A program made the translations under genes and the position numbers. A stretch of 64,000 bases of DNA from a virus, in the IMG/VR virus record IMGVR_UViG_3300031519_006853, positions 96,001 through 160,000 of that record; one strand, 5' to 3'. Positions 9,060-27,991 of the stretch are shown one piece after another (positions within the stretch are counted from its first letter, which is position 1; every line of letters begins with the position of its first letter). The notes beneath the pieces are model-generated. The model searched no databases and was not told the DNA's origin. It saw nothing but the letters and a program-made list of their open reading frames with translations.

Positions 9060-9157
9060 TTGTTAATAACTTTTTAAAATAACTACGAAAGTATGGCCGG
9101 AATCGCATAGAATTGATTATATTTATATTATAAATAATTAATTAAAACAAAACGGAA
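9060..9157 (+). promoter_or_regulatory. Repeated ~100-bp promoter cassette, copy 1 (subtype A)
   Basis: TTGTTAATAACTTTTTAAAATAAC...TATGGCCGGAATCGC...TTGATTATATTTATA...AAAACGGAA-ATG. Confidence 0.8.
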
Positions 9158-9619
9158 ATGGCAACAATTACAGAACACAGATCAGAATTAGGAAACGGAT
9201 TTTCAATCACTCAACAAGTAAAAGGTAAGCAATACAAATTTCATGCTCATAACCACGGATTATGCTGGGATAAGGAATATGACTACCAAGTTATTACAAA
9301 ATGCCAAGCTGGGTTTTTTACTGTATCAACAGGAAAATCTAAACTAAGTCATATTGTTACAGGTTATAAGACAAACAAATTACATACTGTACAACTTAAA
9401 AATGATAATGGTTTTTATCTAACTGCTCTTGCAATAAAAGGTGGTAAATTCTATTTAATAGATAAAGAAATCCTAGAATGTTTAACAGTAGGAGATATTC
9501 ATTCTAACTTTCCTGCAATGGCTGATCATAATCATTGGAAAAACATCGGTTCTAAAACATGGGCAGATCCAGCATACGGAATGTTAGTTAACTCCACAGT
9601 GGAATTTCAAAATTGTTAA
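9158..9619 (+). CDS. Hypothetical early protein
   Basis: ORF directly downstream of a cassette. Confidence 0.7.
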   Translation: MATITEHRSELGNGFSITQQVKGKQYKFHAHNHGLCWDKEYDYQVITKCQAGFFTVSTGKSKLSHIVTGYKTNKLHTVQLKNDNGFYLTALAIKGGKFYLIDKEILECLTVGDIHSNFPAMADHNHWKNIGSKTWADPAYGMLVNSTVEFQNC

Positions 9620-9713
9620 TAACTTTTTAAAAATAACTGTCTAAGTATGGCCAGAATCGCATAGAAATGATTATATTTATATTAATAATAACAATAACAA
9701 AAACGGAAACATT
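9613..9713 (+). promoter_or_regulatory. Promoter cassette copy 2 (subtype A)
   Basis: Same blocks; middle block TATGGCCAGAATCGC. Confidence 0.8.
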
Positions 9714-10064
9714 ATGAACAACGCATTTGAAACTAAAGCAAATTACAAGGAGTCAGTAACAGTATTAAGAACTCAGATTAAATCTCTGAAAAGTTTGGTT
9801 AAATGTTGCAAAGAAGAACGTGCAACTATCAAACCTATTATAGATGAAAAGGTAAATATGCTGAAGTACATATCAGGTTTGAAATCATGGAACTTTAATT
9901 TTGAAGGTGGTGGTTGGAATTCTAATGTTGCTAAGACCAAAGAAGAATCAATTAAGAAGGCAAAGAAAATGTATAATGCAAGTAAACATACTCAGGTTTC
10001 TGAAACTAGTTTCCGAGTTGCTACTGATGCTGATACAAAAAACTTATTATCGTTATTTTACTAA
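9714..10064 (+). CDS. Hypothetical early protein
   Basis: ORF downstream of a cassette. Confidence 0.7.
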   Translation: MNNAFETKANYKESVTVLRTQIKSLKSLVKCCKEERATIKPIIDEKVNMLKYISGLKSWNFNFEGGGWNSNVAKTKEESIKKAKKMYNASKHTQVSETSFRVATDADTKNLLSLFY

Positions 10065-10157
10065 TTGTTAATAACTTTTTGAAAATAACAAGAATTTATA
10101 GTTCAGAATCACAAAAAAAGTATTATATTTATACTATAATTAAAAAACGGAAATAAT
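10065..10157 (+). promoter_or_regulatory. Promoter cassette copy 3 (subtype B)
   Basis: Same blocks; middle block TATAGTTCAGAATC. Confidence 0.8.
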
Positions 10158-11036
10158 ATGAAAAAAGTTCAAAAAATCAAATCAAGGCTAACTCAGATTA
10201 GCAATGTCAAATATGAGAAAGGTTTATTCGAGGCTCATAAAACAAATACACCATTAGACGGATTATTTAGTATTGATGGCGGAGTTCCAAAAGCAACTAA
10301 CTGGATGGTAGTTGGAGATCCTGGTGTTGGTAAATCTACTGTAACACTAGATATTATTGCAAATGCAAAAAAGACTGGATCTAAAGTACTATTCATCTCA
10401 GCTGAAATGAACCAGGTGGATCTTTACCTTTATGTTAAAAGGTATCCTAAGTTCGGAGAATTAGATATATTCTTTCCACAAGAAATAGAAGACAATGAGG
10501 ATCCGAAACAAGTATTAGAAGAAATACTAAATGAAGGCTATGATATAGTTTTAATAGATTCATTTGTTGAACTACAAGAAACAATCCGAGAATCAGGCAG
10601 AATGACCAGAAACAGTTCAGAAAAATACTTATTGGATTTAATGTACAAACAAAACCTAGGAGCTAATAAAGCTAAATGCTTTACATCATTCCTTAATATA
10701 CAACAAGTAAATAAAGGTGGAACATTTGTAGGATCCAACAAACTGAAACATATGACTACTGGTATGATGGAGATAAGGTTCGTAGATGAAAGGGATCAGG
10801 AGGAAAGGTATGTTACCTTTAGTAAAAACCGTCGCGGTCATGTCGGGAAGCAAATGTACTTCGATCTCTCTGCTAGTGGTAATGTAACATATGATACTGA
10901 AAGGTTCAAGAAAGCTGAAGGATTAAAACAATTAAAGAAAGCTGAAAAAGAAAAAATCAAAAAATCAGGTTTACAATTCGATGCTCTATTCGGATTAGAT
11001 AAAGATCAAGAAGAAGGTGAAACAACGAATAAATAA
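10158..11036 (+). CDS. RecA-superfamily ATPase (RadA/Sms- or KaiC-like)
   Basis: Walker A GDPGVGKST, FISAEM, Walker B VLIDS, KNRRG. Confidence 0.8.
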   Translation: MKKVQKIKSRLTQISNVKYEKGLFEAHKTNTPLDGLFSIDGGVPKATNWMVVGDPGVGKSTVTLDIIANAKKTGSKVLFISAEMNQVDLYLYVKRYPKFGELDIFFPQEIEDNEDPKQVLEEILNEGYDIVLIDSFVELQETIRESGRMTRNSSEKYLLDLMYKQNLGANKAKCFTSFLNIQQVNKGGTFVGSNKLKHMTTGMMEIRFVDERDQEERYVTFSKNRRGHVGKQMYFDLSASGNVTYDTERFKKAEGLKQLKKAEKEKIKKSGLQFDALFGLDKDQEEGETTNK

Positions 11037-11037
11037 A

Positions 11038-11149
11038 TTGTTAATAACTTTAGAAAAATAACTTATATTTATAGTTCAGAAACAGTAAAAATTGATTATA
11101 TTTATACTATATTAATTAAACAAATAACAAAAACAAAAAAGTAAAAATT
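11038..11149 (+). promoter_or_regulatory. Promoter cassette copy 4 (subtype B)
   Basis: TTGTTAATAACTT...TATAGTTCAGAAAC...TTGATTATATTTATA. Confidence 0.8.
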
Positions 11150-12307
11150 ATGAAAGAATTAACTACATTATCGCCAACTGCATTCGCCGCCCGTAAAGCC
11201 GAAGCTGTTAGGAACGAAGTAATGAGAAAAGAAATCAGTTTATCTGAGTTCAATGTAATCGACAATACTCATATCGAGGTTGACGGAGTAAAAATAGAAT
11301 TAACACCATTTGCCTTCAAAAGGTTATTAGGTAGGTTAAGAATACCAACGGCATTTGCTAAAAGGTTCGAAACAGGATTTGGTTCTGATGGACTACAACA
11401 ATTAGTACAGATGATGAAAACTATGAAATCATCTAAGAATGATCAAACTGTAACTCTATTGGTTGATCCAAGAGCAAAGAAAGTTACTAACATATTACCT
11501 GCAGGTTATGCAAGTATTAGTAATGAAGCATTCATTGATTTTGCTGAAGGGTATATCAATCAATACGGATTAGAGGTTAAGGACTTCGGTTCAGATCCAA
11601 ACGGTGGAGCTACAATTAACTGTGTATCTCCTAACTCTGTCTTTTCTGTTCCAGGAATGTCGGATGAAGTATTTAATACTGGTGTAACATTCAGAAATAC
11701 CCCAACCAGAGGATTAGAAGTATCGCCTTATCTAAACCGATTAGTTTGCTCAAATGGTATGTCATCAACATCATTCTCTGAAACATACGGTTTACATGAA
11801 CTAACTGATAAATCAATTAGAGAATTTAATGATCATATGATTAACATGGCATCTACAGGATTTCAACCTGTAGGATTAGCTGACAAAATTAAAATGGCAA
11901 ATAACACTGATGCATCAATTGCTGAAGTACAACGCGCAATGTCCGCTATGTTATCAACTGATAAAAAAATTGATTTTGATTACATGCAAAGGTACTTACC
12001 AATTAACCGAGTTATGAAAGCATACTCTGATATTGGAGCTGAACCATCTACCTTTACTACAAAGCAATTACAAAATGCTAAATCAGGTTTATCAATCTGG
12101 GAAGTAGTAAACGGTATAACAAACTTTGCATCCAATGATGAAAAATACAATATAGATGATCACAAAACTGGTAATCTAATGGTATCAGCTGGAAACCTTT
12201 TAATGAAAAAGAATTTTGATACTGAAGCTCTGATTCAATTTGATCCATTTGCAAATAAGCAATTGCTAAATGAAAATGAATCTGCTCGCCTAATGGGACA
12301 AGCATAA
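11150..12307 (+). CDS. DUF932-like protein
   Basis: YASISN and RLVCSNGM motifs characteristic of DUF932/DUF945-type phage proteins. Confidence 0.55.
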   Translation: MKELTTLSPTAFAARKAEAVRNEVMRKEISLSEFNVIDNTHIEVDGVKIELTPFAFKRLLGRLRIPTAFAKRFETGFGSDGLQQLVQMMKTMKSSKNDQTVTLLVDPRAKKVTNILPAGYASISNEAFIDFAEGYINQYGLEVKDFGSDPNGGATINCVSPNSVFSVPGMSDEVFNTGVTFRNTPTRGLEVSPYLNRLVCSNGMSSTSFSETYGLHELTDKSIREFNDHMINMASTGFQPVGLADKIKMANNTDASIAEVQRAMSAMLSTDKKIDFDYMQRYLPINRVMKAYSDIGAEPSTFTTKQLQNAKSGLSIWEVVNGITNFASNDEKYNIDDHKTGNLMVSAGNLLMKKNFDTEALIQFDPFANKQLLNENESARLMGQA

Positions 12308-12377
12308 TATCCCAATCAACCAAAGGATGAGGTTAGTAGTTTAGATTTCCGTTTATCTACTAATCAAAAATCCACCG

Positions 12378-12414
12378 AAGGCATCTGGGTAACATTACTC
12401 AGGTGCCTTTTTTT
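12378..12414 (+). terminator. Rho-independent terminator
   Basis: Long stem AAGGCATCTGGGTA-ACAT-TACTCAGGTGCCTT followed by a T tract. Confidence 0.8.
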
Positions 12415-12434
12415 GTTTAACCATATATACTAAA

Positions 12435-12551
12435 ATGGATCCAAAGGAAAAAGACTATATCGACAAGTACGACGACACGGAAAATTCCGAATACGATAGC
12501 ATCAGTGTACCAAAAGAAACAGAGTACAACGATGATGATTACGATTATTAA
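12435..12551 (+). CDS. 38-aa highly acidic peptide
   Basis: MDPKEKDYIDKYDDTENSEYDSISVPKETEYNDDDYDY*. Confidence 0.5.
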   Translation: MDPKEKDYIDKYDDTENSEYDSISVPKETEYNDDDYDY

Positions 12552-12570
12552 CCAAACTTAAATATATCTT

Positions 12571-13425
12571 ATGAAAAACTTAATTAAATTAATCTGCATA
12601 GTAGTCTTATTTTTATCAGTAAATAGCTGTGGCGTCTCATGGCAAATACAATCAGTAAACCAAGCTGCTCAGGTAGATACTTTATATGATGTTGATGTAA
12701 TTACCTCTAGGAGACAATTAGATTGGAAAATGCAAAGAGATTGGAACTTTGCTAATAACTATTATTCTTTCCTACAACAACAAAACTACTCATTCTTTGT
12801 AGATCAATATTATAGTAATAGACTATATAGATTCGGATGGAATGGACCGCATGATTATTGGATGAATTGGCAATGGAACTGGCACTCAGGTTATAGCAAT
12901 AGTTGGATGTGGAATCAGTATCCTTATTATGGTAATTGGGGATCAAGTCAGTGGCACTATTATCAGAACTCAGGCCATTGGGGATACTCTCAAATTTATG
13001 GTCCAAGAACTCAGTATTTAGGAAATGTATATGGTAGTCGATATGGTCGTAGATCCTCAAATAGATCTCCCCTGTTTAATTCTAATTCTAGTAGATCTAG
13101 TATATTATTAGACTCAAAGGTCAGCACATCTGAAAGTCGCACATATAATCTAAATACAGCGTCACCAATACAAAATTCAATTATCCGTAACAACTCTAAA
13201 CCACGTGTGCTACCAAACTCAAAACCACCAATAGTCAACAACAAACCTGTAATAATCAACAAACCAATTATTCGTAATAACAACAGGCCAGTAATCAACA
13301 ATAGTAATAGCAAGCCAAGGATCAATAATTCCAGCTCTCGCCCTAATTTTAATCGACCAGTTAGTAGACCAAGTGTTCCAAAAACAAACAGTAATACTAA
13401 TAGAAAAGGCAAGAACCCTAGATAG
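12571..13425 (+). CDS. Putative lipoprotein with aromatic low-complexity region and basic tail
   Basis: Signal peptide plus SVNSC lipobox; W/Y/N/G-rich middle; N/R/S/P-rich C-terminus. Confidence 0.7.
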   Translation: MKNLIKLICIVVLFLSVNSCGVSWQIQSVNQAAQVDTLYDVDVITSRRQLDWKMQRDWNFANNYYSFLQQQNYSFFVDQYYSNRLYRFGWNGPHDYWMNWQWNWHSGYSNSWMWNQYPYYGNWGSSQWHYYQNSGHWGYSQIYGPRTQYLGNVYGSRYGRRSSNRSPLFNSNSSRSSILLDSKVSTSESRTYNLNTASPIQNSIIRNNSKPRVLPNSKPPIVNNKPVIINKPIIRNNNRPVINNSNSKPRINNSSSRPNFNRPVSRPSVPKTNSNTNRKGKNPR

Positions 13426-13499
13426 ATCTGTATATACCTCTGAGCAATCGCGTATACTAGTAATACCATAATATCGGGTAGTATCTCATATTCCTTTCA

Positions 13500-13812
13500 G
13501 TACTATCAGTTAATCCGTTCCGGGAGTCCGATACGCTGAAACTGGCTCATGACTTACAGTTCCAGAGTACTGTGATATATACTAGCTTAAATGGTCCTTT
13601 TCTGTACTCCTGTGATAACCTTTTATCTACTCTAAGTACTCTCATTAACTGTAAGTACACTCAAACGGCCTTTCCAGTGGTCAATGTCTAGTTGAGAAAT
13701 CCAAATCATTCGGCACATGCTAACACCTGACCTAGGCCTCCAGAATCCTACCGAGCTGAATCTGTACTCTGAAGAATCACCAAGATGTACTCATATAGCT
13801 ATAATACTGTAC
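13500..13812. repeat. Non-coding tract with eight GTAC(T) motifs
   Basis: GTAC at 13500, 13567, 13604, 13636, 13655, 13764, 13787, 13809. Confidence 0.7.
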
Positions 13813-13845
13813 TTAGACAGGAAATACCCTGGTTGAGCGAAGCAA

Positions 13846-13940
13846 TTGTTAATAACTTTTTGAAAATAACTGCCTGGTTATGGCTACAATCGCATAGAAT
13901 TGATTATATTTATATTATAATAATTAAAACAAACGGAAAT
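13846..13940 (+). promoter_or_regulatory. Promoter cassette copy 5 (subtype A)
   Basis: Same blocks; middle block TATGGCTACAATCGC. Confidence 0.8.
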
Positions 13941-14333
13941 ATGAAAATTCAAAATTTTGCAAAAGGTAATCTACAAACCCTTAGAGTAGACATGGACAAA
14001 GCACTACAATCAGTTGCTAAGAAATACGGTATTACAATCCACGCTGGTAACGCTAGCTTCAGTGGTAACGAATGTACCTTCAAAGTTAAATGCAATACAG
14101 TAGGATCTGATGGTACTGCTATTACTAGGGAAGCTACTAACTGGGATCGCTATAAAGGACTCCACGGTATGGATCATCTAAATGTTGGTGATACTATTAC
14201 TATCCAAGGTTCTCCTTATATACTAACAGGATTTAATAGTAGAGCAAGAAAGGCTCCTATTAATTTTAAGAACTCAGCAGGCTCTGGTTATAAATGTTCA
14301 GTAAGAATGTTACTAATGGAAAACTCTAAATAA
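13941..14333 (+). CDS. Hypothetical early protein
   Basis: Start reassigned from 13785 to the ATG after the cassette (MKIQNFAKGN...). Confidence 0.7.
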   Translation: MKIQNFAKGNLQTLRVDMDKALQSVAKKYGITIHAGNASFSGNECTFKVKCNTVGSDGTAITREATNWDRYKGLHGMDHLNVGDTITIQGSPYILTGFNSRARKAPINFKNSAGSGYKCSVRMLLMENSK

Positions 14334-14334
14334 T

Positions 14335-14592
14335 ATGGCAATGAATCTACAGTATATTTCGGAAGAATCGGTACAACAATTTATAGATGGAATGGATGAG
14401 GTTACAACTGAATCTCTTCTAGAAGATCCAGGAGTTGAGGAACTACTAACTGGCTCTGTACCTCCACAAATACAGGAGCACGATAATCCTCTTGGTACTA
14501 TAGAATCCTTTCTACAACTTTTTATAGATCGTGAGGAATATGAGATTTGTGCTAAACTGGTCGAGGTACATCCAGAGCTATGCAAAAACTAG
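14335..14592 (+). CDS. Small acidic protein with C-terminal UVR-like motif
   Basis: FIDREEYEICAKL. Confidence 0.5.
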   Translation: MAMNLQYISEESVQQFIDGMDEVTTESLLEDPGVEELLTGSVPPQIQEHDNPLGTIESFLQLFIDREEYEICAKLVEVHPELCKN

Positions 14593-15300
14593 GCAAAATA
14601 TGATGTAAAAACACTCCTTTTTAGGGTGCTAATACCAGGTCTTCTAGACAGCCGCTCTAGAGGGCCTATATTAGTGTGTTATTTGGGCACTATTTGGGCA
14701 TATATAGCCTATATAGAGCGTCCAGTATCGTCAACTATCGTCTAGACCGCCCTATATACACCCTCTAGAGCACTAATATAGCCTATATGGCACCCTATTG
14801 TCCGCTCGAGTCAGCTACATGCCGCTAGTATCGTCATATATAGGTATATAGGGTCCATAGACTGCTATAGCCGCTAACCTCACGCCACAGACCAAAATAG
14901 CCTGCTACGACCACCACAGCACTAAAACAACTACTAAATCATCAATAACCCTAGTACGGTCTAGACAGGCTATAGGGCTCGCTGGACCACCCTAGCAAGC
15001 AACTACCATAGTATAGCAACAAGACAAGCAACTAGCTATATAGTAGACTAGTGGTAGTGGTAGCCATGTGGTAGTGGTCAACCAGGCAATGGTAGCAAGA
15101 GAGCAATAAAGTGAATCTTTCTCTTAAGGTGTATTTTTCTCTTGGGAATCTAGAGGTCTACTGGGCGCATGACTTTTACTAGTCCAGAAATTTCCAGCCA
15201 GAAAAAAGAGCTAGTCCAGATATGTGAACCGATTGCTATGTCTATTCGGATCATTTCTAGTCTGGAAAAAATTGGGCCCGAAAAAAATATGACTAAATAA
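14589..15300. other. Long non-coding, repeat-rich, CTAG-rich tract (candidate terminus, packaging or origin region)
   Basis: No long ORF; visibly less AT-rich than the flanking genes; 15 CTAG sites and many short direct and inverted repeats. Confidence 0.55.
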
Positions 15301-15370
15301 ACTCTTACTACACTTTCAGTTACCTACAGGACTTGTTATAATTATATTAAACAATAACTAATAAAAGACT

Positions 15371-15529
15371 ATGTACGAAGCACTCACTCAAAACTCAACT
15401 GACTTAACAAGTATCTCTCATACCCTCGAAGCTATCAGTCTATCGTTGCAACTCCTAGTATACATGGGGATCTGTATTACGGTAGTATACACTGGTAACA
15501 AAATTAATAATTGGACTAAGAAGGCATAA
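15371..15529 (+). CDS. Small membrane protein
   Basis: 52-aa ORF MYEALTQN... with a hydrophobic stretch. Confidence 0.5.
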   Translation: MYEALTQNSTDLTSISHTLEAISLSLQLLVYMGICITVVYTGNKINNWTKKA

Positions 15530-15531
15530 GC

Positions 15532-15915
15532 ATGAAACTATTATACTGTAATACCTGCAGGGACATCGTGAAACTATCAAGAACTACCAGAACTTGCCAA
15601 TGCGGCGCGACTGGTGGACACTATAAGGAAGACGGATTAAACGCGATCTATTACGGTCCTGCTATTCCATTAGGTTTCGCTAACTCTAGTTTCCGTGATG
15701 CTCGAGATAATCAACCTGAGTTTGGTATGGGTACTGTCTACAACGCATTTGTTATTCCGAAGGTCTGTCCGACTATGGAACATGTAGATCTATTAGATTA
15801 TACAGAAGTTTTTGATATTGAGGAAGATGAGTACAGTGTTGATATTATGATGGCAAGAGCTGAGGATGAAAGAAAACAACGTAAACTTAGAAATGTATTT
15901 AAAGATGAAGACTAA
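15532..15915 (+). CDS. Hypothetical zinc-binding protein
   Basis: CNTC...CQCG. Confidence 0.6.
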   Translation: MKLLYCNTCRDIVKLSRTTRTCQCGATGGHYKEDGLNAIYYGPAIPLGFANSSFRDARDNQPEFGMGTVYNAFVIPKVCPTMEHVDLLDYTEVFDIEEDEYSVDIMMARAEDERKQRKLRNVFKDED

Positions 15916-16042
15916 AGTAATTAAATTTTGTGAAGGTTGCTTATACGGCGTAGGATATGGATTTATGATTGCAATGGGACTACTGATTATTTGTAGTATC
16001 TCATTTGCTTTCTATAATTTGTTCTTAGAGCTGTTTAGTTAA
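15905..16042 (+). CDS. Small membrane protein
   Basis: 45-aa hydrophobic ORF. Confidence 0.45.
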   Translation: MKTKVIKFCEGCLYGVGYGFMIAMGLLIICSISFAFYNLFLELFS

Positions 16043-16126
16043 CTATGTGCTTTCAGAGTATAAAATGTGCGACAGATGTGCGACCGCCCTATAAAGAATG
16101 CAAGTATTAATAATAAATATAGAAAT

Positions 16127-16303
16127 ATGAATAAATGGAATAAGATAAAAAAAGAAGGCTGGCTAGCTTGTATGTTAGTGGGCATCTCTTTATTGACATG
16201 GGCAATTAGCCAAGGGGAATGTTTTACTGGACATATACCTTTAGCATGTTTACTCCTCATCTTTGGGGTGGCGGCAGAAACTTCTAATACTAAAGGAGAA
16301 TGA
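16127..16303 (+). CDS. Small membrane protein
   Basis: Two hydrophobic segments; start reassigned to MNKWNKIK. Confidence 0.5.
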   Translation: MNKWNKIKKEGWLACMLVGISLLTWAISQGECFTGHIPLACLLLIFGVAAETSNTKGE

Positions 16304-16661: not shown

Positions 16662-16676
16662 TAAAATATATTAGAA

Positions 16677-16928: not shown

Positions 16929-16937
16929 ATAATGAAT

Positions 16938-17022: not shown

Positions 17023-17040
17023 CTATAAAATAATAAAGAT

Positions 17041-17217
17041 ATGAATAAAAAACTAAATAGAGGAAACGGTTATATTGGTGGGGTCTGCCAAGGATTAGGA
17101 GAGTGGTCAGGAATACCTTCAATCTTATGGAGGGTTGGCTTTCTATTTTTTATACCAGCAGCTTTTTGGATATATGTTACATTGTGGATTTTTATTGAAA
17201 AAGACTTTCAGAATTAA
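17041..17217 (+). CDS. pspC: PspC-domain protein
   Basis: KKLNRGNGYIGGVCQGLGEWSGIPSILWRVGF...YVTLWIFIE matches the PspC pattern (R...IxGVCxGLxxxxG..R). Confidence 0.8.
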   Translation: MNKKLNRGNGYIGGVCQGLGEWSGIPSILWRVGFLFFIPAAFWIYVTLWIFIEKDFQN

Positions 17218-17264
17218 ACTAAATAGATTATAATTATATTATAACAATTAAACTATAAAATAAC

Positions 17265-17522
17265 ATGGCAGAATTTAAAAATGGCGATAAAGTAAAATGG
17301 ATTGTACCAATGAGTTGTGTACCTCATCCTGAAGGAAAAACTGATAGAAAGGGAGAAGTACTTCCAGTGTTCAGAGATAAAGAATTTATTGGCGAGATAA
17401 TTTCATTATGTGGTAATGGGAAAATACAAGTTAGACCTGAAGGTTTAACATGCGAACTACCAAAAGGTATACCATCTTACTATGATCAGAATATTTCAAA
17501 AAATAACTTAACACTGGTTTAG
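17265..17522 (+). CDS. Hypothetical protein
   Basis: ORF track. Confidence 0.6.
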   Translation: MAEFKNGDKVKWIVPMSCVPHPEGKTDRKGEVLPVFRDKEFIGEIISLCGNGKIQVRPEGLTCELPKGIPSYYDQNISKNNLTLV

Positions 17523-17523
17523 T

Positions 17524-17748: not shown

Positions 17749-17749
17749 T

Positions 17750-18311: not shown

Positions 18312-18645
18312 TTTATGTTTAGATTGTGGCTTATGTTGTAATGGTACATTATGGCTAGGTGTATATGTTGAAGAATCAAAACATCATTTATTTAAAAATA
18401 TTGTAAAGAAAAAAATTAACTTTGGTCTTGCTAAGCAAGGTGGAGACGGTTGTGAACAATTAGATAATTGCAATTTATGTAAGATTTATGAAAACCGACC
18501 ATCTAACTGTAGAGAATATGAATGCGGTGTCTTAAATGAAGTCAAAAGAAATGATATATCCTTTGCATATGCAGAATTACTAATTAAAGATCTTAAGAAA
18601 AACCCACATGATGAAGAATTAATCAATCGGTTTAAAAATTGTTAA
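18298..18645 (+). CDS. YkgJ-family (CxxCxxCC) cysteine-cluster protein
   Basis: CLDCGLCC...CEQL...CKIYENRPSNCREYEC. Confidence 0.85.
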   Translation: MKANDLCLDCGLCCNGTLWLGVYVEESKHHLFKNIVKKKINFGLAKQGGDGCEQLDNCNLCKIYENRPSNCREYECGVLNEVKRNDISFAYAELLIKDLKKNPHDEELINRFKNC

Positions 18646-18735
18646 TAACTTTTTGAAAATAACGTGAATTTATAGTTCAGAATCCCATTTAATTGATTAT
18701 ATTTATATTATAATAATTAAAACAAAAACGGAACT
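18639..18735 (+). promoter_or_regulatory. Promoter cassette copy 6 (subtype B)
   Basis: Same blocks; middle block TATAGTTCAGAATC. Confidence 0.8.
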
Positions 18736-19143
18736 ATGGCAACATTAAGAATTACAACTCAGTACTACGAAAATTACTCGGACTCTCAAACTCCACACTG
18801 GAAACCAAAAGGTGGACAAACATTTATCATCAAAGATATTGAAGGTGATATGATTATGTACTGTGATAATCTAACAGAGGTTTGTAAAAACCTTGTATCT
18901 GCAAAATCAAATGAGCATTTCAAATATGATTATAGAGATCATGAAGTTGACTTTATAGGCGATGAGGAAATCTCTGTAACCGAACTTACTAAAGAAATAA
19001 GAGATCAATTTAACGGTGATGGTAAATATGCACCGAAGGACATTCCTGGATTTGAAGGTACCTTAGATAAATTAAATGATATCACTATAATGTGTTCGGC
19101 TGACTTAGATAATGAAATGGCTAACGAATCAGAAAACATATAA
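18736..19143 (+). CDS. Hypothetical early protein
   Basis: ORF downstream of a cassette. Confidence 0.7.
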   Translation: MATLRITTQYYENYSDSQTPHWKPKGGQTFIIKDIEGDMIMYCDNLTEVCKNLVSAKSNEHFKYDYRDHEVDFIGDEEISVTELTKEIRDQFNGDGKYAPKDIPGFEGTLDKLNDITIMCSADLDNEMANESENI

Positions 19144-19466: not shown

Positions 19467-19470
19467 AACT

Positions 19471-19683: not shown

Positions 19684-19686
19684 CTT

Positions 19687-20372: not shown

Positions 20373-20386
20373 ACTAAAATAATAAG

Positions 20387-21163: not shown

Positions 21164-21236
21164 AAGTGTAACTTATATGAAACAAAACAAGACAAAATGT
21201 AACTTATATGAAACATTAAAAAACTAAAACAATAGA
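21151..21236. repeat. Nested short direct repeats
   Basis: ACTAAAACAATAGA at 21151 and 21223 flank two copies of TGTAACTTATATGAAACA (21167, 21198). Confidence 0.8.
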
Positions 21237-21237
21237 T

Positions 21238-21462
21238 ATGAAAGCAACACTAACATTCGATCTAGACGATCCACAAGATGTAGAATCGCACTTACAATGT
21301 GTTAAAGCAGCTAAAATGGCTGGATTCATTTGGGAGCTTAAGCATAACTTCTGGAGGAAGTGGAAACACAATGAAGAAGACTTCACTTTAGATAACTACA
21401 AAGAAGCATTAGCAGAATTAATGGATGAACATAATATCAATGTATACGAATTGAACCAATAA
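21238..21462 (+). CDS. Hypothetical phage protein
   Basis: MKATLTFDLDDPQD pattern. Confidence 0.6.
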   Translation: MKATLTFDLDDPQDVESHLQCVKAAKMAGFIWELKHNFWRKWKHNEEDFTLDNYKEALAELMDEHNINVYELNQ

Positions 21463-21473
21463 ACAATAATAAG

Positions 21474-21812
21474 ATGAAAATATTACAAAAGATAGCATGG
21501 TTAACCAGAAGGTGGAATTTATCAATAAGACTATTTGACTTACAATTACATGATGGACATAACTCTTGGGGTTTTCATCTGTTAGCAATTAGACATAATC
21601 ATTCAGTATATTCATTATTAGCATTTGAATGCAGATTACCTAACGGTGGAGACATAAAGGTATTTGCAGTAGATCATGTAGATATATTATTCTTAAGACA
21701 AGTTCTTAACGACTGGGCTTGTGATTTAGAAGAAGATAATATGTGGGCTGGTAGAACTCCTACAAGGTTAGAGAAAATAGGAATAGCTTTAGTTGGTACA
21801 ATCTTTAAATAA
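21474..21812 (+). CDS. Hypothetical protein
   Basis: ORF track. Confidence 0.6.
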   Translation: MKILQKIAWLTRRWNLSIRLFDLQLHDGHNSWGFHLLAIRHNHSVYSLLAFECRLPNGGDIKVFAVDHVDILFLRQVLNDWACDLEEDNMWAGRTPTRLEKIGIALVGTIFK

Positions 21813-21813
21813 A

Positions 21814-21907
21814 TTGTTAATAACTTTTAAAAATAATTAGAGAAGTATGGCTACAATCGCGAAAAATTGATTATATTTATACTATATTAATAATTAAAAA
21901 ATAAAAC
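21814..21907 (+). promoter_or_regulatory. Promoter cassette copy 7 (subtype A)
   Basis: Same blocks; middle block TATGGCTACAATCGC. Confidence 0.8.
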
Positions 21908-22213
21908 ATGAGCAAGTACCAAGAACTATTACAAAACCCACCAACATTCACTGAACTTTATGATAGTGAAAATTTAAGAGAAGTTATTTTTGAACTAATT
22001 AGCTGTATGTGTGATAACAAATATACATTCAAATTAAAAAAGAATTCCGAAGGTGATTTTAAATTACATACATGCGGGTTTGCATTTAGCAATTTTTCAA
22101 TCAAAAACCCTATGCATGATATTGAATGGGAAGCTGATGATAACAATTGGGGAACTGTTGTAAATATGATCAATACCGGTACATCAAAAATTAATACTGT
22201 TAAGTGTAGATAA
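21908..22213 (+). CDS. Hypothetical early protein
   Basis: ORF downstream of a cassette. Confidence 0.65.
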   Translation: MSKYQELLQNPPTFTELYDSENLREVIFELISCMCDNKYTFKLKKNSEGDFKLHTCGFAFSNFSIKNPMHDIEWEADDNNWGTVVNMINTGTSKINTVKCR

Positions 22214-22755
22214 TGAATTGTACTAAATGTAAAGAAGATATTGATTCTAGGCGACTAAAAGCTTTACCACAAACTAAGGTTTGTGTAAACTGCTCAACAG
22301 AAGAGTATGTTAGTTGTGTTGATGTTATCTATCATAAAACAGGAAATACAATACAGATCATGGATAAGGAATCTGCTGATAAGATAAACAAACTTTCTAG
22401 GAGAAGCGGTTTTGGAATTATGGCAGGAATGAAAGGTAGTAGCGGTGGAGGAACCTCATCTAAAGTATTAGGGAATGTTACAGTATTTAGAATACCTACC
22501 GAAGAAGATTATCAACAGACACTAAAAAGAGTAGGTGAAATGATTGATTTTACAAGTCGTGAAAAATGTATTGCATACGTAGAGCGTCAATATGAAAGTA
22601 AGTTAATCAATTCTAAGCATTCTTTTAATCTTAAAACAATAATAGATACATTATTACCCTTGCCTAAAAAGGAAGAAGTTATTATAGATGAAACTTTAGA
22701 TGAAGAAATACTTCATACATTTAGAAACTGGAAAAACTCAAAAATATACAGATGA
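22213..22755 (+). CDS. DksA/TraR-type C4 zinc-finger protein with C-terminal extension
   Basis: CTKCKEDIDSRRLKALPQTKVCVNC. Confidence 0.75.
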   Translation: MNCTKCKEDIDSRRLKALPQTKVCVNCSTEEYVSCVDVIYHKTGNTIQIMDKESADKINKLSRRSGFGIMAGMKGSSGGGTSSKVLGNVTVFRIPTEEDYQQTLKRVGEMIDFTSREKCIAYVERQYESKLINSKHSFNLKTIIDTLLPLPKKEEVIIDETLDEEILHTFRNWKNSKIYR

Positions 22756-23258
22756 TAAAAAATATAATAATGGTACTACCTTTTGCTCTTACCCTAACAG
22801 GATCTGAGAGTAACTATAAAGAGGATATAGAAGTTATGGACAATCTTATTATTGATATTATAGAACCAGAAGTTAACCTCATTAATGGAAAGATTGATAA
22901 CCGAGGAGAACTTATAACGGCTATGGCTTTTGTTGAAAGTGGTGGTAATCCTGCAACAATTGGAGATATTAATTTAGGAACACCTTCGGTAGGACTTTTA
23001 CAAATTAGACCTATTATGGTTAGAGAAGTAAATAGAATATTGAGAAAACAAGGATTAGATAAAAGATTTAAAAATAGTGATAGAAAATCAGCTGATAAGT
23101 CAATTGAGATGTTTAATATCTGGGCTGATGCTTATCACTTAAATAGTTCATATGAAAAGATGGCAAGAAATTGGAATGGCGGACCTAGGGGCTATAAGAA
23201 AACTGCAACTGCTCATTATTGGACTAAAGTAACAAACTATGTAACATTAAATTTATAG
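22752..23258 (+). CDS. Lytic transglycosylase (SLT-like)
   Basis: MAFVESGG (catalytic Glu), GLLQI, ARNWNGGP; hydrophobic N-terminus. Confidence 0.8.
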   Translation: MIKNIIMVLPFALTLTGSESNYKEDIEVMDNLIIDIIEPEVNLINGKIDNRGELITAMAFVESGGNPATIGDINLGTPSVGLLQIRPIMVREVNRILRKQGLDKRFKNSDRKSADKSIEMFNIWADAYHLNSSYEKMARNWNGGPRGYKKTATAHYWTKVTNYVTLNL

Positions 23259-23402
23259 ATGCCTAAGGATTTTATAAAATGTAGTAGATGTAAAGAAACC
23301 TTTGATAGTGGTTTTGGCTATAGGATGCATTTTGATAAGCACATAGATGAATGGTACGAATCTAAAGATAAGAAAAAATATATTAAAAAAACAACACAAT
23401 GA
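23259..23402 (+). CDS. 47-aa protein with a classical C2H2 zinc finger
   Basis: C-SR-C-KET-F-DSGFG-Y-RM-H-FDK-H. Confidence 0.6.
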   Translation: MPKDFIKCSRCKETFDSGFGYRMHFDKHIDEWYESKDKKKYIKKTTQ

Positions 23403-23845
23403 TAAAGGTAAAGGTAGTATACATGAATGGGAAAGAAACTGAATATAATGTTGAGTACCCAAAAGCATATATAGCAAAAATTATGGAAAGTGAAAATGAT
23501 CTAATGCTAGACCAAAAATCTGTAAAAGAAATTTATAAAGAAGATAAACTGATTGCTAAATTTACAAATGGATTTCTAAATGAATTGGTATTAGAAAAAC
23601 CCGAGCCTAAAAAGACTGCAGGTATGGGTAAGTACAAAGGTCATACGGTTCCAGCAGGTTGTGATGTTGGTCAACATCTAATCCCAGAAGTACAAGAGAT
23701 AGAAGATAAGATTAAAGCTGAAGAAGATTGGAATGAATACCAAGCAGAAATCTTACATGCTCAAAAAATACTAAAGGAAAACTTATGGGTAACAGATCAT
23801 ACTGGTGGTAATGTAGATTTGAATTACATTCCTAAGTCTTTATGA
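23399..23845 (+). CDS. Hypothetical protein
   Basis: ORF track. Confidence 0.6.
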   Translation: MIKVKVVYMNGKETEYNVEYPKAYIAKIMESENDLMLDQKSVKEIYKEDKLIAKFTNGFLNELVLEKPEPKKTAGMGKYKGHTVPAGCDVGQHLIPEVQEIEDKIKAEEDWNEYQAEILHAQKILKENLWVTDHTGGNVDLNYIPKSL

Positions 23846-24258
23846 AGAACTTTCATAAAAGGTTTAAAGTTATGTTGACCATATTCATCTCTTAAAATTT
23901 GACCTACAGCTAATGCAAAATCAGCATAAGACATTGAGTCATCTATTTTAATCATTGCTTTATCCATTGCTTTTGCTAAAGCTTCAGACTTTTTAGATTC
24001 AAATATATCAAAAGGAGGTACATGATTTTCATTTTGAGTTTTATCATCCTCATGTTCTTCTTCCCAGTGTGGACTTTTAATATCTTTATCTCTAGTAGGA
24101 TGAACATCAAATCCTTGTCTTACTGGACTATCATACGCGTTAGTATCTTTACCATCTGCTAAGTCGTCAAACATTTGTTTAAACTGGCCAACTGTACCTT
24201 TATAATGTCTAATTGTATCTTGGTCTTTTCTTGACTGATCTTCTTCCTTTGGGTCCAT
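23824..24258 (-). CDS. Putative internal virion protein
   Basis: Last gene of the minus-strand operon; internal PPFDIFES motif. Confidence 0.6.
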   Translation of the reverse strand: MDPKEEDQSRKDQDTIRHYKGTVGQFKQMFDDLADGKDTNAYDSPVRQGFDVHPTRDKDIKSPHWEEEHEDDKTQNENHVPPFDIFESKKSEALAKAMDKAMIKIDDSMSYADFALAVGQILRDEYGQHNFKPFMKVLHKDLGM

Positions 24259-25157
24259 TACTTTTTATATTTTTGCTTAAGCTGATGTATTTGTGTTTGT
24301 ATCTTTAATCTTTGCAAATCCATTTTGTCAAGTGATACTCTTAATTGATAATATTGAACGGCGAAAGGATCTTCTCTATCTTGCGCAGCTCTAAATCTTT
24401 CAATGTTTTGCTGTTCTCTTCTTTTTAATCTTTCAGCTGTTTCATTTGGATTAAATTCATGTTTAGCAGCTTCGGTAACTCCATCATTACCATCCATCGT
24501 ATCGTGAACTGAATTTAGATTTTTAACTGAGTCTGAGATTTTAGAATACATCCAAGCATCTAATGTTTGACCTTGTGACATTCTATCTTTAATCATATCA
24601 GCATAATCAGCGATTCTTTCAAGATCGGTATTTGCCATTTTATTTAAACCGCCTATAGTATCTTCACCTTCAATAACTACTGATTCATTTTCCATTACAT
24701 AAACATAATCTTCACCATCTTCCTTTGCTTTCTTCTTAGCCCATTTCTGAGCATCTGGCCATGACATCCCGTTTGGAATTTGCCACTCATCAGATCCATC
24801 ACGATTATATGAGAACATCCATCCACCATATCCTTTAGGTTTCTTACCATGAGATCTTACGTATCTTTCGGTTTCAATCTTAGCGGCTTCGGTAACTGCT
24901 GATTCACTAAATAATCTCTTACCAGTGTTATCTTCTAAATGTAATAGTGCTTTAGGATACTTTTCTTGCATTACATTAAACGTTGCAGGAGCAACATCTG
25001 GTGTACTTACTGGTTCTTGGTGTATTACCTTACCATCCTGTACAACTACAATTACTGCAGGATAACTTCCCTGCTTTGCAGCCTTGTGTACTTTACGCCT
25101 AGATGCCTCATTTACACTAAAGGATTCAAATCCTGGTATTAAATCTATACTTGCCAT
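24258..25157 (-). CDS. Multi-module putative internal virion protein
   Basis: IPGFESFSVNEA N-terminus; repeated VTEAAK / IEG junctions. Confidence 0.65.
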   Translation of the reverse strand: MASIDLIPGFESFSVNEASRRKVHKAAKQGSYPAVIVVVQDGKVIHQEPVSTPDVAPATFNVMQEKYPKALLHLEDNTGKRLFSESAVTEAAKIETERYVRSHGKKPKGYGGWMFSYNRDGSDEWQIPNGMSWPDAQKWAKKKAKEDGEDYVYVMENESVVIEGEDTIGGLNKMANTDLERIADYADMIKDRMSQGQTLDAWMYSKISDSVKNLNSVHDTMDGNDGVTEAAKHEFNPNETAERLKRREQQNIERFRAAQDREDPFAVQYYQLRVSLDKMDLQRLKIQTQIHQLKQKYKK

Positions 25158-25158
25158 A

Positions 25159-25644
25159 TTAAAATGTTGAATTTATAATTAGTTCTTGGATCTCACTTAT
25201 TAATTGTTTCTTCTCTCTTGATCCTTTTGGATTTCTTCCGTTAATTGCACTTATGTAATTTTTGTCAATTAAATAATCTGAAATTACTGTTGCTAATACT
25301 TTTGCTCCAGATGGTTTATCTTTTCCAGCTACTTGAACCATTGCTTCATCCATAGAACCGTAGTTTTCATATGCTCTATCCATAGATTCATTTACATGCT
25401 TCTTAGCTTCTTTAAGATATGATTCAGCTGTATGATCATTATTATCATTAGTTTCATACATGTTTGCTTGTTCAGCAATATGATTTGAACATGATTCAAT
25501 AATTCCTGTAACAGGAGTCATACTATATCCAGTTTCTGGTGTTGCACCACCTAATCCAAAATTCTGGATTCCTGATTGCCCAAAACCCATAACTGCAATT
25601 TCTTCATTTACTTCGAATTTATCAAAATTTGGTATCTTACTCAT
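25159..25644 (-). CDS. Putative internal virion protein
   Basis: MSKIPNFDKFEVNEE N-terminus; late-type motif upstream. Confidence 0.65.
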   Translation of the reverse strand: MSKIPNFDKFEVNEEIAVMGFGQSGIQNFGLGGATPETGYSMTPVTGIIESCSNHIAEQANMYETNDNNDHTAESYLKEAKKHVNESMDRAYENYGSMDEAMVQVAGKDKPSGAKVLATVISDYLIDKNYISAINGRNPKGSREKKQLISEIQELIINSTF

Positions 25645-25662
25645 AATTAGTTTTATATTTGT

Positions 25663-25671
25663 TTATATATT
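25663..25671 (-). promoter_or_regulatory. Late-type promoter motif AATATATAA
   Basis: Reads TTATATATT on the + strand, 19 nt upstream of the minus-strand ATG at 25644. Confidence 0.55.
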
Positions 25672-25673
25672 TG

Positions 25674-25701
25674 TAAACAAACATTAAGTTGTTGCATATA
25701 A
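25674..25701 (+). promoter_or_regulatory. Putative promoter TAAAC-N18-TATAA
   Basis: Recurrent motif upstream of ATG 25716. Confidence 0.45.
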
Positions 25702-25715
25702 AAATAAACACAATT

Positions 25716-25901
25716 ATGTCAGAATTTTTTAGAACAGCGATGGGTCGTAAATTAATTGATGGAGATATACCTAATTTGGTAAATGTCTTAGAAAGAATTG
25801 CAACTCAATTAGAAAGAAAAAACAAATTAGAGGAAAAGAAATTTATATTAGAAGAAAAAATCCAAAGACTTACAATAAAAGAATCAAATAAAAATGGCTA
25901 A
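25716..25901 (+). CDS. Small coiled-coil hypothetical protein
   Basis: MSEFFRTAMGRKL; start reassigned from 25689. Confidence 0.6.
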   Translation: MSEFFRTAMGRKLIDGDIPNLVNVLERIATQLERKNKLEEKKFILEEKIQRLTIKESNKNG

Positions 25902-26160
25902 AGGGGATATTACATATAAACAATTTATTGCTCACATGGATAAGGGTAGTAAAGTTTATATGAAAAAACCTAAGTCATGGCAAAAAGTCTGGTTTTGGTG
26001 GGAGAGCAAAAAAGACAAATGGTTTTTAAATAAAGCATTTGATAAAAGAACAGATGGAAGAGTAGAACCAGAGCCTTCAGTATGGATAACTGCAAAACAA
26101 ATGGACTCTCATTTTAATTTTATGTCAAGACAAGGTTATAAATATCATATAGATGAATAA
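25894..26160 (+). CDS. Hypothetical protein
   Basis: ORF track. Confidence 0.6.
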   Translation: MAKGDITYKQFIAHMDKGSKVYMKKPKSWQKVWFWWESKKDKWFLNKAFDKRTDGRVEPEPSVWITAKQMDSHFNFMSRQGYKYHIDE

Positions 26161-26497
26161 ATTACTATTAGCATTTGCATTGTTCTTTACTGGGCAAGCT
26201 GCAATATGGTTTCAAACAAATGGACAATTTGTATGGCCTTGGTTTAAAAAGAATCCTTTAACAGTATCAGTTCTATTTGGTACTGCAATTAGTTACATAT
26301 TAATATATGGTACTAAGTTTATGGTTGAATACTATGATGGCTTACTATGGCCAGGTAGATTTATTGCCTTTGGGTCTGGTATTATTTCTTTTACGTTTTT
26401 AACATGGTTTTTTCTTGGTGAAGGAATTACGACTAAAACAGTAGTCTCATTATTCATAGCATGTAGTTTAATTGGTATACAACTTCTTTGGAAATAA
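26153..26497 (+). CDS. Small multi-pass membrane protein (DMT/SMR-like size)
   Basis: Four hydrophobic helices in 114 aa. Confidence 0.6.
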   Translation: MNKLLLAFALFFTGQAAIWFQTNGQFVWPWFKKNPLTVSVLFGTAISYILIYGTKFMVEYYDGLLWPGRFIAFGSGIISFTFLTWFFLGEGITTKTVVSLFIACSLIGIQLLWK

Positions 26498-27324
26498 TGA
26501 AAGACCCTTATAACATATTAGGAGTAGATAAATCTTCATCAGCTGATGATATTAAAAAAGCTTATAGAAAATTAGCTAAAAAATATCACCCAGATACTAC
26601 AAATGGAAATGAAGAAAAATTTAAAGAAGCAGCTGATGCATACGAAACTTTAGGTAATACTCAAAAGAAAGCACAGTATGACCAAATGCAATCTAATCCA
26701 TTTGGTAATTTTGGAGGTGGTGATTTTAATGATAGTATGTTTGAAGATTTACTTAGAAATCAAAATTTTAGTGGGGCGTTTAATCAGAGGTATGGATATA
26801 ATACAAAGGGTAGGAATACAACAGGTGTTTTAAGAATAACTTTAGCTGATGCTTATTACGGAACAAGTAGGGATGTAAACATTGGAATGAAAACAATAAA
26901 ACTTGATATCCCACCAGGAATACGAAATGGACAAAAGCTAAGATTAAAAGGACTAGGGCAAAGAGGCCAAACTGAAGAATTAAGCGGTGATCTTATTATG
27001 AACATTGAAGTTATAAATGATACTAACTTTTTTCTAGATAATCAAGGTTTGCATACTGTTAAGAATATAAGTATGTATGATGCCATACTTGGTGGAAAGG
27101 ATTCTATTAATTGTTATGATAAAATTATATCTTTTTCAATACCAAGAGGAACTACTAATGGAAAAGTATTGAGAGTTAAAGGAAAAGGGTTTCCTGTTTA
27201 TAAACAAGAAGGTAAGTATTCAGATTTACTTATAAGTGTAATAGTTGATATTCCAACTAATTTAGATAAGGAAGATGAAATATTAATTAAAAAAATTAAA
27301 GATAAGCATAATGGAAAAGGGTAA
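26488..27324 (+). CDS. dnaJ: DnaJ class II (CbpA-like) co-chaperone
   Basis: DPYNILGV, KKAYRKLAKKYHPD, short G/F region, C-terminal domain GQKLRLKGLG..GDL; no zinc finger. Confidence 0.92.
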   Translation: MEIMKDPYNILGVDKSSSADDIKKAYRKLAKKYHPDTTNGNEEKFKEAADAYETLGNTQKKAQYDQMQSNPFGNFGGGDFNDSMFEDLLRNQNFSGAFNQRYGYNTKGRNTTGVLRITLADAYYGTSRDVNIGMKTIKLDIPPGIRNGQKLRLKGLGQRGQTEELSGDLIMNIEVINDTNFFLDNQGLHTVKNISMYDAILGGKDSINCYDKIISFSIPRGTTNGKVLRVKGKGFPVYKQEGKYSDLLISVIVDIPTNLDKEDEILIKKIKDKHNGKG

Positions 27325-27601
27325 CGGTTTTAGTGATGATTTTATTAGAAGTCTTTTACTAACATTAGAGCAAACAGATTTTGCTGAATTTATGAAATTA
27401 TCATATCATGTAGTAATGCAGAGTCCTAGCGCAGTTTTAAAAAGAAGAGACTCTATGGAATTAAAGCTAAAAAGTATTAATGGGATGATTAAATATTTTG
27501 AAGAAACTGAAGAATATGAAAAATGTACTAATTTACAAAAATTAAAATCAATGTTATTTGTAATTCCACCAGATGATGATGATCATAAAACTTTTAATTA
27601 A
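27311..27601 (+). CDS. Small protein with C-terminal UVR-like motif
   Basis: YFEETEEYEKCTNLQKL. Confidence 0.5.
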   Translation: MEKGNGFSDDFIRSLLLTLEQTDFAEFMKLSYHVVMQSPSAVLKRRDSMELKLKSINGMIKYFEETEEYEKCTNLQKLKSMLFVIPPDDDDHKTFN

Positions 27602-27613
27602 TTTTACATATAA
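27588..27613 (+). promoter_or_regulatory. Putative promoter AAAC-N17-TATAA
   Basis: Recurrent motif upstream of ATG 27631. Confidence 0.45.
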
Positions 27614-27630
27614 CTAATAAATCAATCAAT

Positions 27631-27801
27631 ATGAACTTTTTAGAATTTATATTTCAATCATTTTGGCATTTTATAGGATGCGTATTTCTTTTAGCTATTG
27701 TAGTTCAGTGGAAACCTTTTGTATCTTCTAGACACCAAGGTCTAACTACCAAACAATTTAATGATATATTAGAAGAGCTTAAAAAGAAAAAGAGTAAGTA
27801 A
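27631..27801 (+). CDS. Small membrane protein
   Basis: MNFLEFIFQSFWHFIGCVFLL, 56 aa. Confidence 0.6.
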   Translation: MNFLEFIFQSFWHFIGCVFLLAIVVQWKPFVSSRHQGLTTKQFNDILEELKKKKSK

Positions 27802-27808
27802 TTTTTAT

Positions 27809-27881
27809 TGTCCTATGGTGTAACTGGCAACACGTCTGTTTTTGGTACAGAAGAGTCGAGGTTCGAGCCCTTGTGGGACAA
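27809..27881 (+). tRNA. tRNA-Gln(UUG)
   Basis: Acceptor TGTCCTA/TGGGACA, anticodon arm TCTGT-TTTTGGT-ACAGA, GTTCGAGC. Confidence 0.92.
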
Positions 27882-27896
27882 CTATTTGTTTTAAAA

Positions 27897-27991
27897 TTGT
27901 TAATAACTTTTTGAAAATAACGTGAATTTATAGTTCAGAACCGAGAAAATTGTATTATATTTATATTATAATAAATTAAACAAAACGGAAT
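27897..27991 (+). promoter_or_regulatory. Promoter cassette copy 8 (subtype B)
   Basis: Same blocks; middle block TATAGTTCAGAACC. Confidence 0.8.

Follow-up and report, generated by a model that had tools for sequence, protein, structure and literature searches.

We describe here a repeated regulatory cassette in the genome of an uncultured virus, IMG/VR record IMGVR_UViG_3300031519_006853. The stretch analysed, hereafter the window, is 64,000 nucleotides long and corresponds to bases 96001-160000 of a 181,663-bp record that is about 65% complete. A preliminary description of the window had listed eight copies of the cassette, and these are recovered at the same positions, all on the plus strand, by motif search, alignment and a repeat finder. 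The unit is about 95 nt long, co-oriented and strictly intergenic, and reads 5' to 3' as an invariant box (ATTGTTAATAACTT), an A-rich part that includes a second AATAAC, a middle block that varies, a core, and an A-rich leader. Every copy begins 0-2 nt past the stop codon of the preceding open reading frame (ORF), or overlaps that ORF so that its stop is the TAA inside the box, and all ten copies present in the record end at an ATG.

Cassette copies and the genes that follow them

Copy 1 (type A, 9060..9157, plus strand) has an exact box, the TATGGCCGG block, a -7-like box at 9117 and an ACGGAA abutting the ATG of ORF 9158-9619 (153 aa). Just upstream, at 9040..9059 on the same strand, are two tandem 10-nt partial repeats of the 5' half of the box (AACTGTTAAA twice). 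ORF 7993-9048 stops inside the first of them, and relatives too have such tandem boxes, partial or complete. Copy 2 (type A, 9613..9713, +) precedes ORF 9714-10064 (116 aa), with the upstream ORF stopping at the TAA inside the box, and copy 3 (type B, 10065..10157, +) would drive a RecA/KaiC-like ATPase gene at 10158-11036. Copy 4 (type B, 11038..11149, +) lies before ORF 11150-12307 (385 aa), and copy 5 (type A, 13846..13940, +) before an ORF that runs to 14333 and whose true start is 13941, not 13785. Copy 6 (type B, 18639..18735, +) again takes its TAA as the stop of the upstream ORF and precedes ORF 18736-19143 (135 aa); copy 7 (type A, 21814..21907, +) precedes ORF 21908-22213 (101 aa), whose orthologue carries type B or C in relatives; and copy 8 (type B, 27897..27991, +) begins 15 nt past a tRNA-Gln and ends at the ATP-dependent DNA ligase gene 27992-29293.

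The 15-mer that marks the copies is exact at 9060, 9613, 10065, 13846, 18639, 21814 and 27897 and has one mismatch at 11038. Allowing up to two mismatches gives 11 matches against 1.55 +/- 1.41 in shuffled sequence, and none of 100 shuffles reaches 11. A match at 12749 was considered as a further copy and rejected, being a partial chance match that aligns with the other copies nowhere else. The genome-wide motif scan proposed in the preliminary description yields ten copies in the 181,663-bp record, with the two outside the window at genome 90151 (a B/A hybrid, TATGGTTCA) and 177257 (type A), and none on the minus strand of the record. The cassettes cluster at genome 90-124 kb, and the genes they precede are non-structural, among them the ligase, the ATPase and small ORFs. 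Within the cassette-rich stretch there is a single clear intrinsic terminator, at window 12377-12410 after the 385-aa gene, which is strong (a 15-pair stem and a T run).

The phage and its likely host

The record has 208 of its 211 crude ORFs on one strand, and PHROG matches include T4-type portal, prohead protease, major head protein, tail sheath, baseplate wedge and large terminase, together with topoisomerase II subunits, a gp46-like nuclease subunit, DNA ligase, a gp55-like late sigma factor, a gp4-like head closure protein and a gp2-like end protector. The phage is thus read as an uncultured T4-related myovirus. Compared with the cultured phages Sphingomonas PAU, Tenacibaculum PTm1/PTm5/pT24 and Flavobacterium MaF61, its terminase reaches an identity of only 30-36%, and with one uncultured huge phage 50%. 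Promoter-early stem-loop (PeSL) cassettes are known in the T4-type phages RB49/phi1, PST/T4 and nt-1/KVP40, and because this phage is T4-related the comparison with them drawn in the preliminary description is an apt one (PMC2839356, PMC4122927).

Across 208 start regions G is depleted and there is no Shine-Dalgarno (SD) sequence, and A peaks at -11 to -15 (62-70%) and at -3 (65%). The same A-rich pre-start pattern is seen in SD-less initiation in Bacteroidetes, as described for Flavobacterium johnsoniae (PMC6847099). Small contigs that carry the cassette have been binned into metagenome-assembled genomes (MAGs) of Flavobacteriia, Cryomorphaceae and Bacteroidota. The start contexts and this binning together make it likely that the host belongs to the Bacteroidota, of a marine-type, Flavobacteriia-like kind.

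Two other features of the window are noted here. A 1237-aa tail-fibre-like gene has at least 22 tandem 18-nt repeats in a collagen-like segment (33274-33849). A stretch of about 700 nt at 14593-15310 is free of ORFs, with a G+C content of about 39% versus 31% and 71-73% nucleotide identity in the relatives L121 and L135; it could hold a non-coding RNA, and Rfam is blank there.

Putative core promoter and leader

Alignment and the repeat finder reproduce the anatomy outlined previously, in which the box and the second AATAAC lead into the middle block, then TTATATTTATA and a leader rich in A that reaches the ATG. In a survey of all intergenic regions, the core of type B consists of a GTTCAG hexamer (-33-like) placed 17 nt before the -7-like TATATTTA, and the geometry kTTCAr-N17-TATATTTA recurs both with and without the upstream box; the type C hexamer of other lineages is TTTCAA. 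Box-less sites of the form TTTCAG-17-TATAwTTA occur at genome 51276, 78390, 88640 and 110593 (window about 15314). The site in the window (15314..15370, +) has TTTCAG, 17 nt and TATAATTA before ORF 15371-15529, and a second box-less, core promoter-like site at 17207..17264 (+) has TTCAGA, 16 nt and TATAAT/TTATAATTATA before ORF 17265-17522.

Bacteroidota promoters have a -33 TTTG and a -7 TAnnTTTG, the latter at -12 to -5 (PMC6847099, PMC9723704), with the G at -5 nearly invariant (PMC6847099). Counted as TTTC-19-TAnnTTTA, the cassette core parallels this arrangement. TATATTTA agrees with TAnnTTTG at seven of eight positions, the last base being A in all copies, and types B and C have (G/T)TTC 19 nt upstream of the -7-like box where type A has GGCY. 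The proposal that the cassette is a module joining a promoter to a translation start site is supported, both by the resemblance of its -7-like box to TAnnTTTG and by a leader that fits SD-less Bacteroidota initiation (PMC6847099). A sigma-70 consensus reading was rejected, as the scan gives fewer sites than shuffles and the cassettes score only 9 of 12, and so was the AATTG just upstream as the true -7 element, which is not conserved in relatives. We also note that the reverse complement of TATATTTATA (the -7-like box, e.g. window 9117-9127) contains TATAAATA, the T4 late-promoter consensus, in all copies, and that this minus-strand match is probably a by-product of near-palindromic AT sequence.

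The leader frequently ends in ACGGAA, which adjoins the ATG with its C most often 6 nt before it in 94 of 160 unique cassettes and before almost no other gene of the genome; examples in the window are 9150-9157, 9700-9707, 10142-10148, 13933-13939, 18724-18730 and 27983-27989. We rejected ACGGAA as a Shine-Dalgarno sequence, since it is too close to the ATG, starts in general lack G, and the likely host is of the wrong type. It could be the target of a translational regulator or of a nuclease; a RegA homologue that might bind it gave no match, in a search that had no positive control.

These properties lead us to favor a reading, to which we assign a probability of about 0.68, in which the cassette gives this uncultured T4-related myovirus, most likely a phage of Bacteroidota, an extended promoter and translation-start module for its pre-late genes.

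The upstream box and its helical spacing

The invariant box is 14 bp long and lies about 58 bp upstream of the -7 box. At loci fetched by homology to the ATPase gene at 10158, all 41 unique cassettes share one box core, TGTTAATAACT, and 29 of them keep the exact -7 box; these 41 are the profile matches that align from the 5' end of the model, a selection that leans to box-bearing copies. Across cassettes the box is either perfect or absent, and never degenerate.

Measured start to start over 149 unique cassettes, the spacing of the box and the -7 box falls into few classes: 57-59 bp in 128 cassettes, 68-70 bp in 13, 48 bp in two, and 56 bp and 80 bp in one each. The only other distances, 53-54 bp, are chance matches in bacterial genomes. 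The pattern scan could return distances of 52-62 only, and the 48, 68-70 and 80 bp classes come from extra copies in the fetched loci, so these classes were not imposed by the search. Several of the inserts responsible are unrelated to the box, namely palindromic T-run/A-run inserts and a different 10-nt insert in the lineage of the large relative G003, and others are tandem box copies spaced 11-12 or 21 nt apart. At L159:8947-9030, L151:8677-8760, L153:11147-11230 and L118:3208-3300 an insert of 11-12 nt (once about 22 nt) after the box makes the T-run/A-run a perfect AT-rich palindrome (T5-6 CTCTCT AGAGAG A5-6), and the length that such palindromic inserts add is exactly one turn of the helix or two.

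Overall, the steps measure about 10.7 bp, or whole helical turns, and indicate that the box has to keep one face of the helix relative to the core promoter. The box thus stands upstream of the core on a constant face, some of the steps being tandem box duplications. Taken as natural mutants, the cassettes with 10-11 or 22 bp inserted and those with 10 bp deleted point to an upstream activating site whose action depends on the face of the helix, and for which binding by the alpha C-terminal domain or an activator, and stimulation of transcription, are predicted. An ECF-type reading of the box (AAC ... CGT) was rejected, as the CGT is present in some copies only.

The spacing also bears on whether the cassette could act in RNA, as a processing site, a terminator, a riboregulator in read-through transcripts, or a structured 5' untranslated region. 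The copies lie between co-directional genes, so that read-through RNA would include them, and the distance from ACGGAA to the ATG is fixed. However, the leaders are unstructured (minimum free energy near 0), and folding of the flank plus box and of the middle parts gives minimum free energy z-scores of -2.0 to +1.5, no different from shuffles. No hairpin or attC-like structure is found at the copies, a terminator scan is at background with no site at any of them, and the cassette matches no RNA family at gathering score, three tRNAs being the sole Rfam matches in the window. Moreover, a periodicity of about 10.7 bp is a property of the double helix. An RNA-level element is thus very improbable.

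Distribution among relatives

The cassette is present in at least 117 viral contig stretches by a scan for the two end boxes 38-48 nt apart, and the 80 matches listed come from about 70 different metagenome datasets. Four other large relatives have 8-12 co-oriented boxes each, clustered in part of the genome. The ligase orthologue keeps its cassette in dozens of relatives, and phages with an ATPase of 72% identity or less have box-less promoters or a diverged box. Megablast and blastn find no cultured phage that carries the cassette. As carriers, bacterial genomes were rejected, with matches only on small phage-like MAG contigs and a few leaderless chance matches. In one Flavobacterium sp. MAG (L172, G006:C186:29500-36000) an unrelated repeat of about 90 nt, in at least seven copies, begins with GTTGTTAATAACTTTATGG and ends with a small hairpin and a T run; it contains the box 13-mer and has no -7 box and no leader. 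Literature searches with the box and -7 box strings returned no relevant context, and a search for T4-like flavobacterial early promoters returned nothing specific.

Late-type promoters, sigma factors and probable timing

A motif similar to T4 late promoters, yATATAAwA(A)TAAA, is found 10-20 nt ahead of the ATG in 41 of 208 genes, most of them structural, against a background of 2%. The 100-125 kb stretch, where most of the cassettes lie, has almost none. Examples are at window 1640-1671, 25680-25715, 47040-47086 and 60490-60531, with about 35 more in the record. This motif often directly follows a GC hairpin and T-run, forming composites that are structurally more PeSL-like than the cassette is, and several late-type promoters have a short motif, TCTTAAACAwT, immediately before them (window 34748-34760 and 43591-43603; genome 53745 and 178085).

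The gp55-like late sigma factor is encoded outside the window at G000:C1:15009-15404 (L171:1339-1734), adjoining the gp4-like and gp2-like genes. Given its presence and the distribution of the late motif, the cassette class is best read as pre-late, and its early or middle timing is suggested by the gene content and by a distribution complementary to that of late-type promoters. The phage also has a 212-aa ECF-like sigma factor (Sigma70_r2 and r4_2) at G000:C1:51886-52524 (L170:1420-2058), again outside the window, in an operon behind a box-less core promoter, with a homologue 75% identical in the relative G004. Three box-bearing relatives (G001-G003) lack this factor, and the cassettes are therefore probably independent of it. 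The simplest reader of the cassettes is the host polymerase.

Middle-block types

The division into two subtypes is as first noted, with type A (TATGGCyrs, 25 nt to TTATATTTA) at 9060, 9613, 13846 and 21814 and type B (TATAGTTCAG, 26 nt) at 10065, 11038, 18639 and 27897. The clade holds further middle-block types, at least one of them common (C), together with hybrids such as TATGGTTCA. In close relatives the subtypes are largely stable per gene, the 9714 gene always having A, the ATPase B, and the ligase B or C.

The preliminary description proposed two separately regulated classes, and the types could reflect a two-tier programme in which the box, the middle block or both dock phage activators, MotA-like in function, such that B and C copies would be early and read by unmodified host polymerase and A copies, with no -33-like hexamer, would be middle and dependent on a phage factor. 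The conserved part of A, rGTATGGCY, persists in lineages where B became C, which keeps open a second, separately recognised class of cassette, and A copies precede small unknown genes only, with B and C copies preceding the ATPase, the ligase and the 385-aa gene. The all-or-none, clade-specific character of the box and the additional ECF-like sigma factor also fit such a programme. However, two genes, 9158 and 21908, have A in this phage and B or C in others, and hybrid blocks exist. A link between the ECF-like sigma factor and type A copies is unsupported, as G004 has the factor and no A copy, and G001-G003 have boxes and no factor, all of these being incomplete records. MotA_activ and AsiA gave no match in the phage, in searches whose positive controls were silent too, and the invariant box lies near -65, not at -30 as does the MotA box. 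We regard a two-tier programme of this form as possible and, on balance, unlikely.

Probable recombination between copies

Comparison of gene order with relatives bears out in part the shuffling proposed in the preliminary description: cassette-plus-gene units are gained, lost and relocated, with one deletion joint inside a cassette, but there is no excess of breakpoints. The relatives L145 and L146 lack exactly the 452-nt unit 9613-10064. They track the gene at 9158 of the window up to the box, and then continue with the 10065 cassette and the ATPase gene, so that by alignment the joint lies in the box, within 25 shared nt. In PeSL-bearing phages recombination between direct repeats gives such unit deletions (PMC2839356), and a unit loss with its joint in the box is the expected product of such an event. 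Elsewhere, L144 has an extra cassette and 62-aa gene, L147 has the 9158 gene replaced, and L149 has the 9158 unit moved behind the 19791 gene. Spacers of A-type copies are 84% identical within a genome and 65% identical between orthologous positions of different genomes, in a small sample, a pattern that fits conversion among copies and concerted evolution. At copy 6, homology to relatives begins at 18629-18631, and homology blocks often start at the 5' edge of a cassette.

All of these observations, and the PeSL precedent in T4-type phages (PMC2839356, PMC4122927), also speak for a reading in which selection maintains the cassettes chiefly for recombination, the box being recognised by a specific recombination protein, as a PeSL- or integron-like gene-exchange device and not primarily as promoters. 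However, the adjacency of neighbouring genes is lost at 35 of 60 cassette junctions (58%) versus 416 of 785 junctions (53%) elsewhere in the region. The region is hyperplastic, and at this resolution the cassettes are not preferred breakpoints. The integron-style part of the earlier proposal fails, as neither a tyrosine or serine recombinase nor an attC-like hairpin is found and each unit has its own promoter-like core; of the integron features considered, an IntI-type recombinase, a folding attC and promoterless cassettes served by one Pc, none is found. No Phage_integrase or Resolvase match is present in the 181-kb record (about 65% complete), in searches whose positive controls worked, and with no integrase the cassette system is not integron-like. 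In addition, orthologues retain the cassette across distant relatives, and helical phasing to the core is a constraint of transcription, not of recombination. We consider dedicated shuffling improbable, and propose that the copies serve as occasional recombination joints.

Discussion

Under the reading that we favor, in which the cassette is a pre-late promoter and translation-start module, RNA polymerase, most likely the host sigma-A holoenzyme, would bind the core through the -33-like TTCAr, the 17-nt spacer and the -7-like TATATTTA. Transcription would begin a few bases downstream and give a leader of 20-45 nt that is unstructured, A-rich and SD-less. The box, centred about 65 bp upstream of the guessed start, would act as an upstream activating site facing the polymerase on the same side of the helix, and it may be bound by the alpha C-terminal domain or by a factor of host or phage origin. 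With ten near-identical, directly oriented copies lying between small genes, homologous recombination by the phage may occasionally cross over or convert between them, and single units would be deleted, inserted, moved or re-promoted. By analogy with the PeSL cassettes of other T4-type phages, such recombination would be a by-product and at most a secondary benefit.

Several observations weigh against this reading. In type A copies the -33-like hexamer is missing from its expected position, and the -7-like box ends in A, not in the G that is nearly invariant at -5 of host promoters (PMC6847099). The start site and the timing of the cassettes are guesses, and the host is deduced from start contexts and contig binning. 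Tandem duplication of the 11-12-nt box itself would yield steps of about 11 bp without selection, and some of the helical-turn pattern arises in this way. No enrichment of the box is seen in four Flavobacteriia genomes, and it is at control level only in Tenacibaculum PTm1 and pT24, Flavobacterium MaF61 and the huge phage LR756500, which leaves a general host UP-element reading without support. Junctions at cassettes, finally, are not broken more often than those elsewhere.

We also entertain, as a speculative and rather doubtful extension, that the box docks a clade-specific protein, either phage-encoded and possibly delivered with the DNA or a hijacked host factor, which would activate a regulon of about ten exchangeable gene units. 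The A block would then be the site of a second factor, giving a two-step pre-late programme unlike that of MotA/AsiA, and the box would also channel recombination. If this were true, new genes would arrive already wired into the regulon through the same rigid box.

To our knowledge, the control of transcription in phages infecting Bacteroidota is almost unknown, with no phage transcription programme worked out in this phage group or that phylum, and we know of no described promoters for the abundant uncultured T4-related phages of marine-type Flavobacteriia. The cassette offers a precise, searchable marker for a candidate pre-late regulon in well over a hundred environmental phage genomes, and comparative evidence for promoter repeats as crossover points beyond those T4-type phages, of proteobacteria and cyanobacteria, that served to define PeSLs. 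It is also a compact candidate for a strong promoter and leader for genetic tools in Flavobacteriia.

Comparison with known systems

The cassette resembles PeSLs in being a repeated, conserved composite in which an AT-rich upstream part and a host-type early promoter (here a putative promoter, by motif) lead to a ribosome-binding region with its start codon. Like them, it lies among small non-essential genes in a hyperplastic region of a T4-related phage. As in PeSL-bearing phages, relatives lose or gain an ORF between two copies through a crossover inside the cassette. All ten copies end in a ribosome-binding region and start codon, although SD-less as expected for the host type. The cassette is nevertheless not a strict PeSL, because it has no stem-loop terminator in or before it, the copies instead abutting the preceding stop codon. 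It also differs from PeSLs in having a promoter in the Bacteroidota -33/-7 style rather than TTGACA/TATAAT, in having no Shine-Dalgarno sequence, in its invariant 14-bp box phased in helical turns, and in showing no measurable excess of rearrangement at its junctions.

The early promoters of T4 form a distinct and unusually long conserved class with A/T-rich, UP-like upstream parts. The cassette similarly has dozens of conserved bases beyond the core, strong A/T tracts upstream, and many copies before pre-replicative genes, but it belongs to a different host transcription system, and it has a discrete, all-or-none box in place of graded A/T tracts and several discrete middle-block types. With the sigma-A promoters of Bacteroidota it shares the register of TA..TTT, a T-rich element placed 19 nt before this, leaders that are short, and start regions rich in A and lacking an SD, and it departs from them in the A for G at -5, in the C or A for G within the -33 element, and in the absence of a -33 element from type A.

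UP elements and class I activator sites, such as that for CRP at -61.5, lie 50-90 bp upstream of the start, at distances that shift by whole turns. The box likewise lies 50-90 bp upstream of the guessed start with a distance that varies by whole helical turns only, but its sequence is far more rigid than a UP element and it is not enriched in candidate host genomes. By these analogies the cassette would work as a T4 early promoter or PeSL does, in the transcription and translation idiom of the Bacteroidota, and its new features are an upstream box that is rigid and helically phased, a middle block of several discrete kinds, and the phylum of the likely host.

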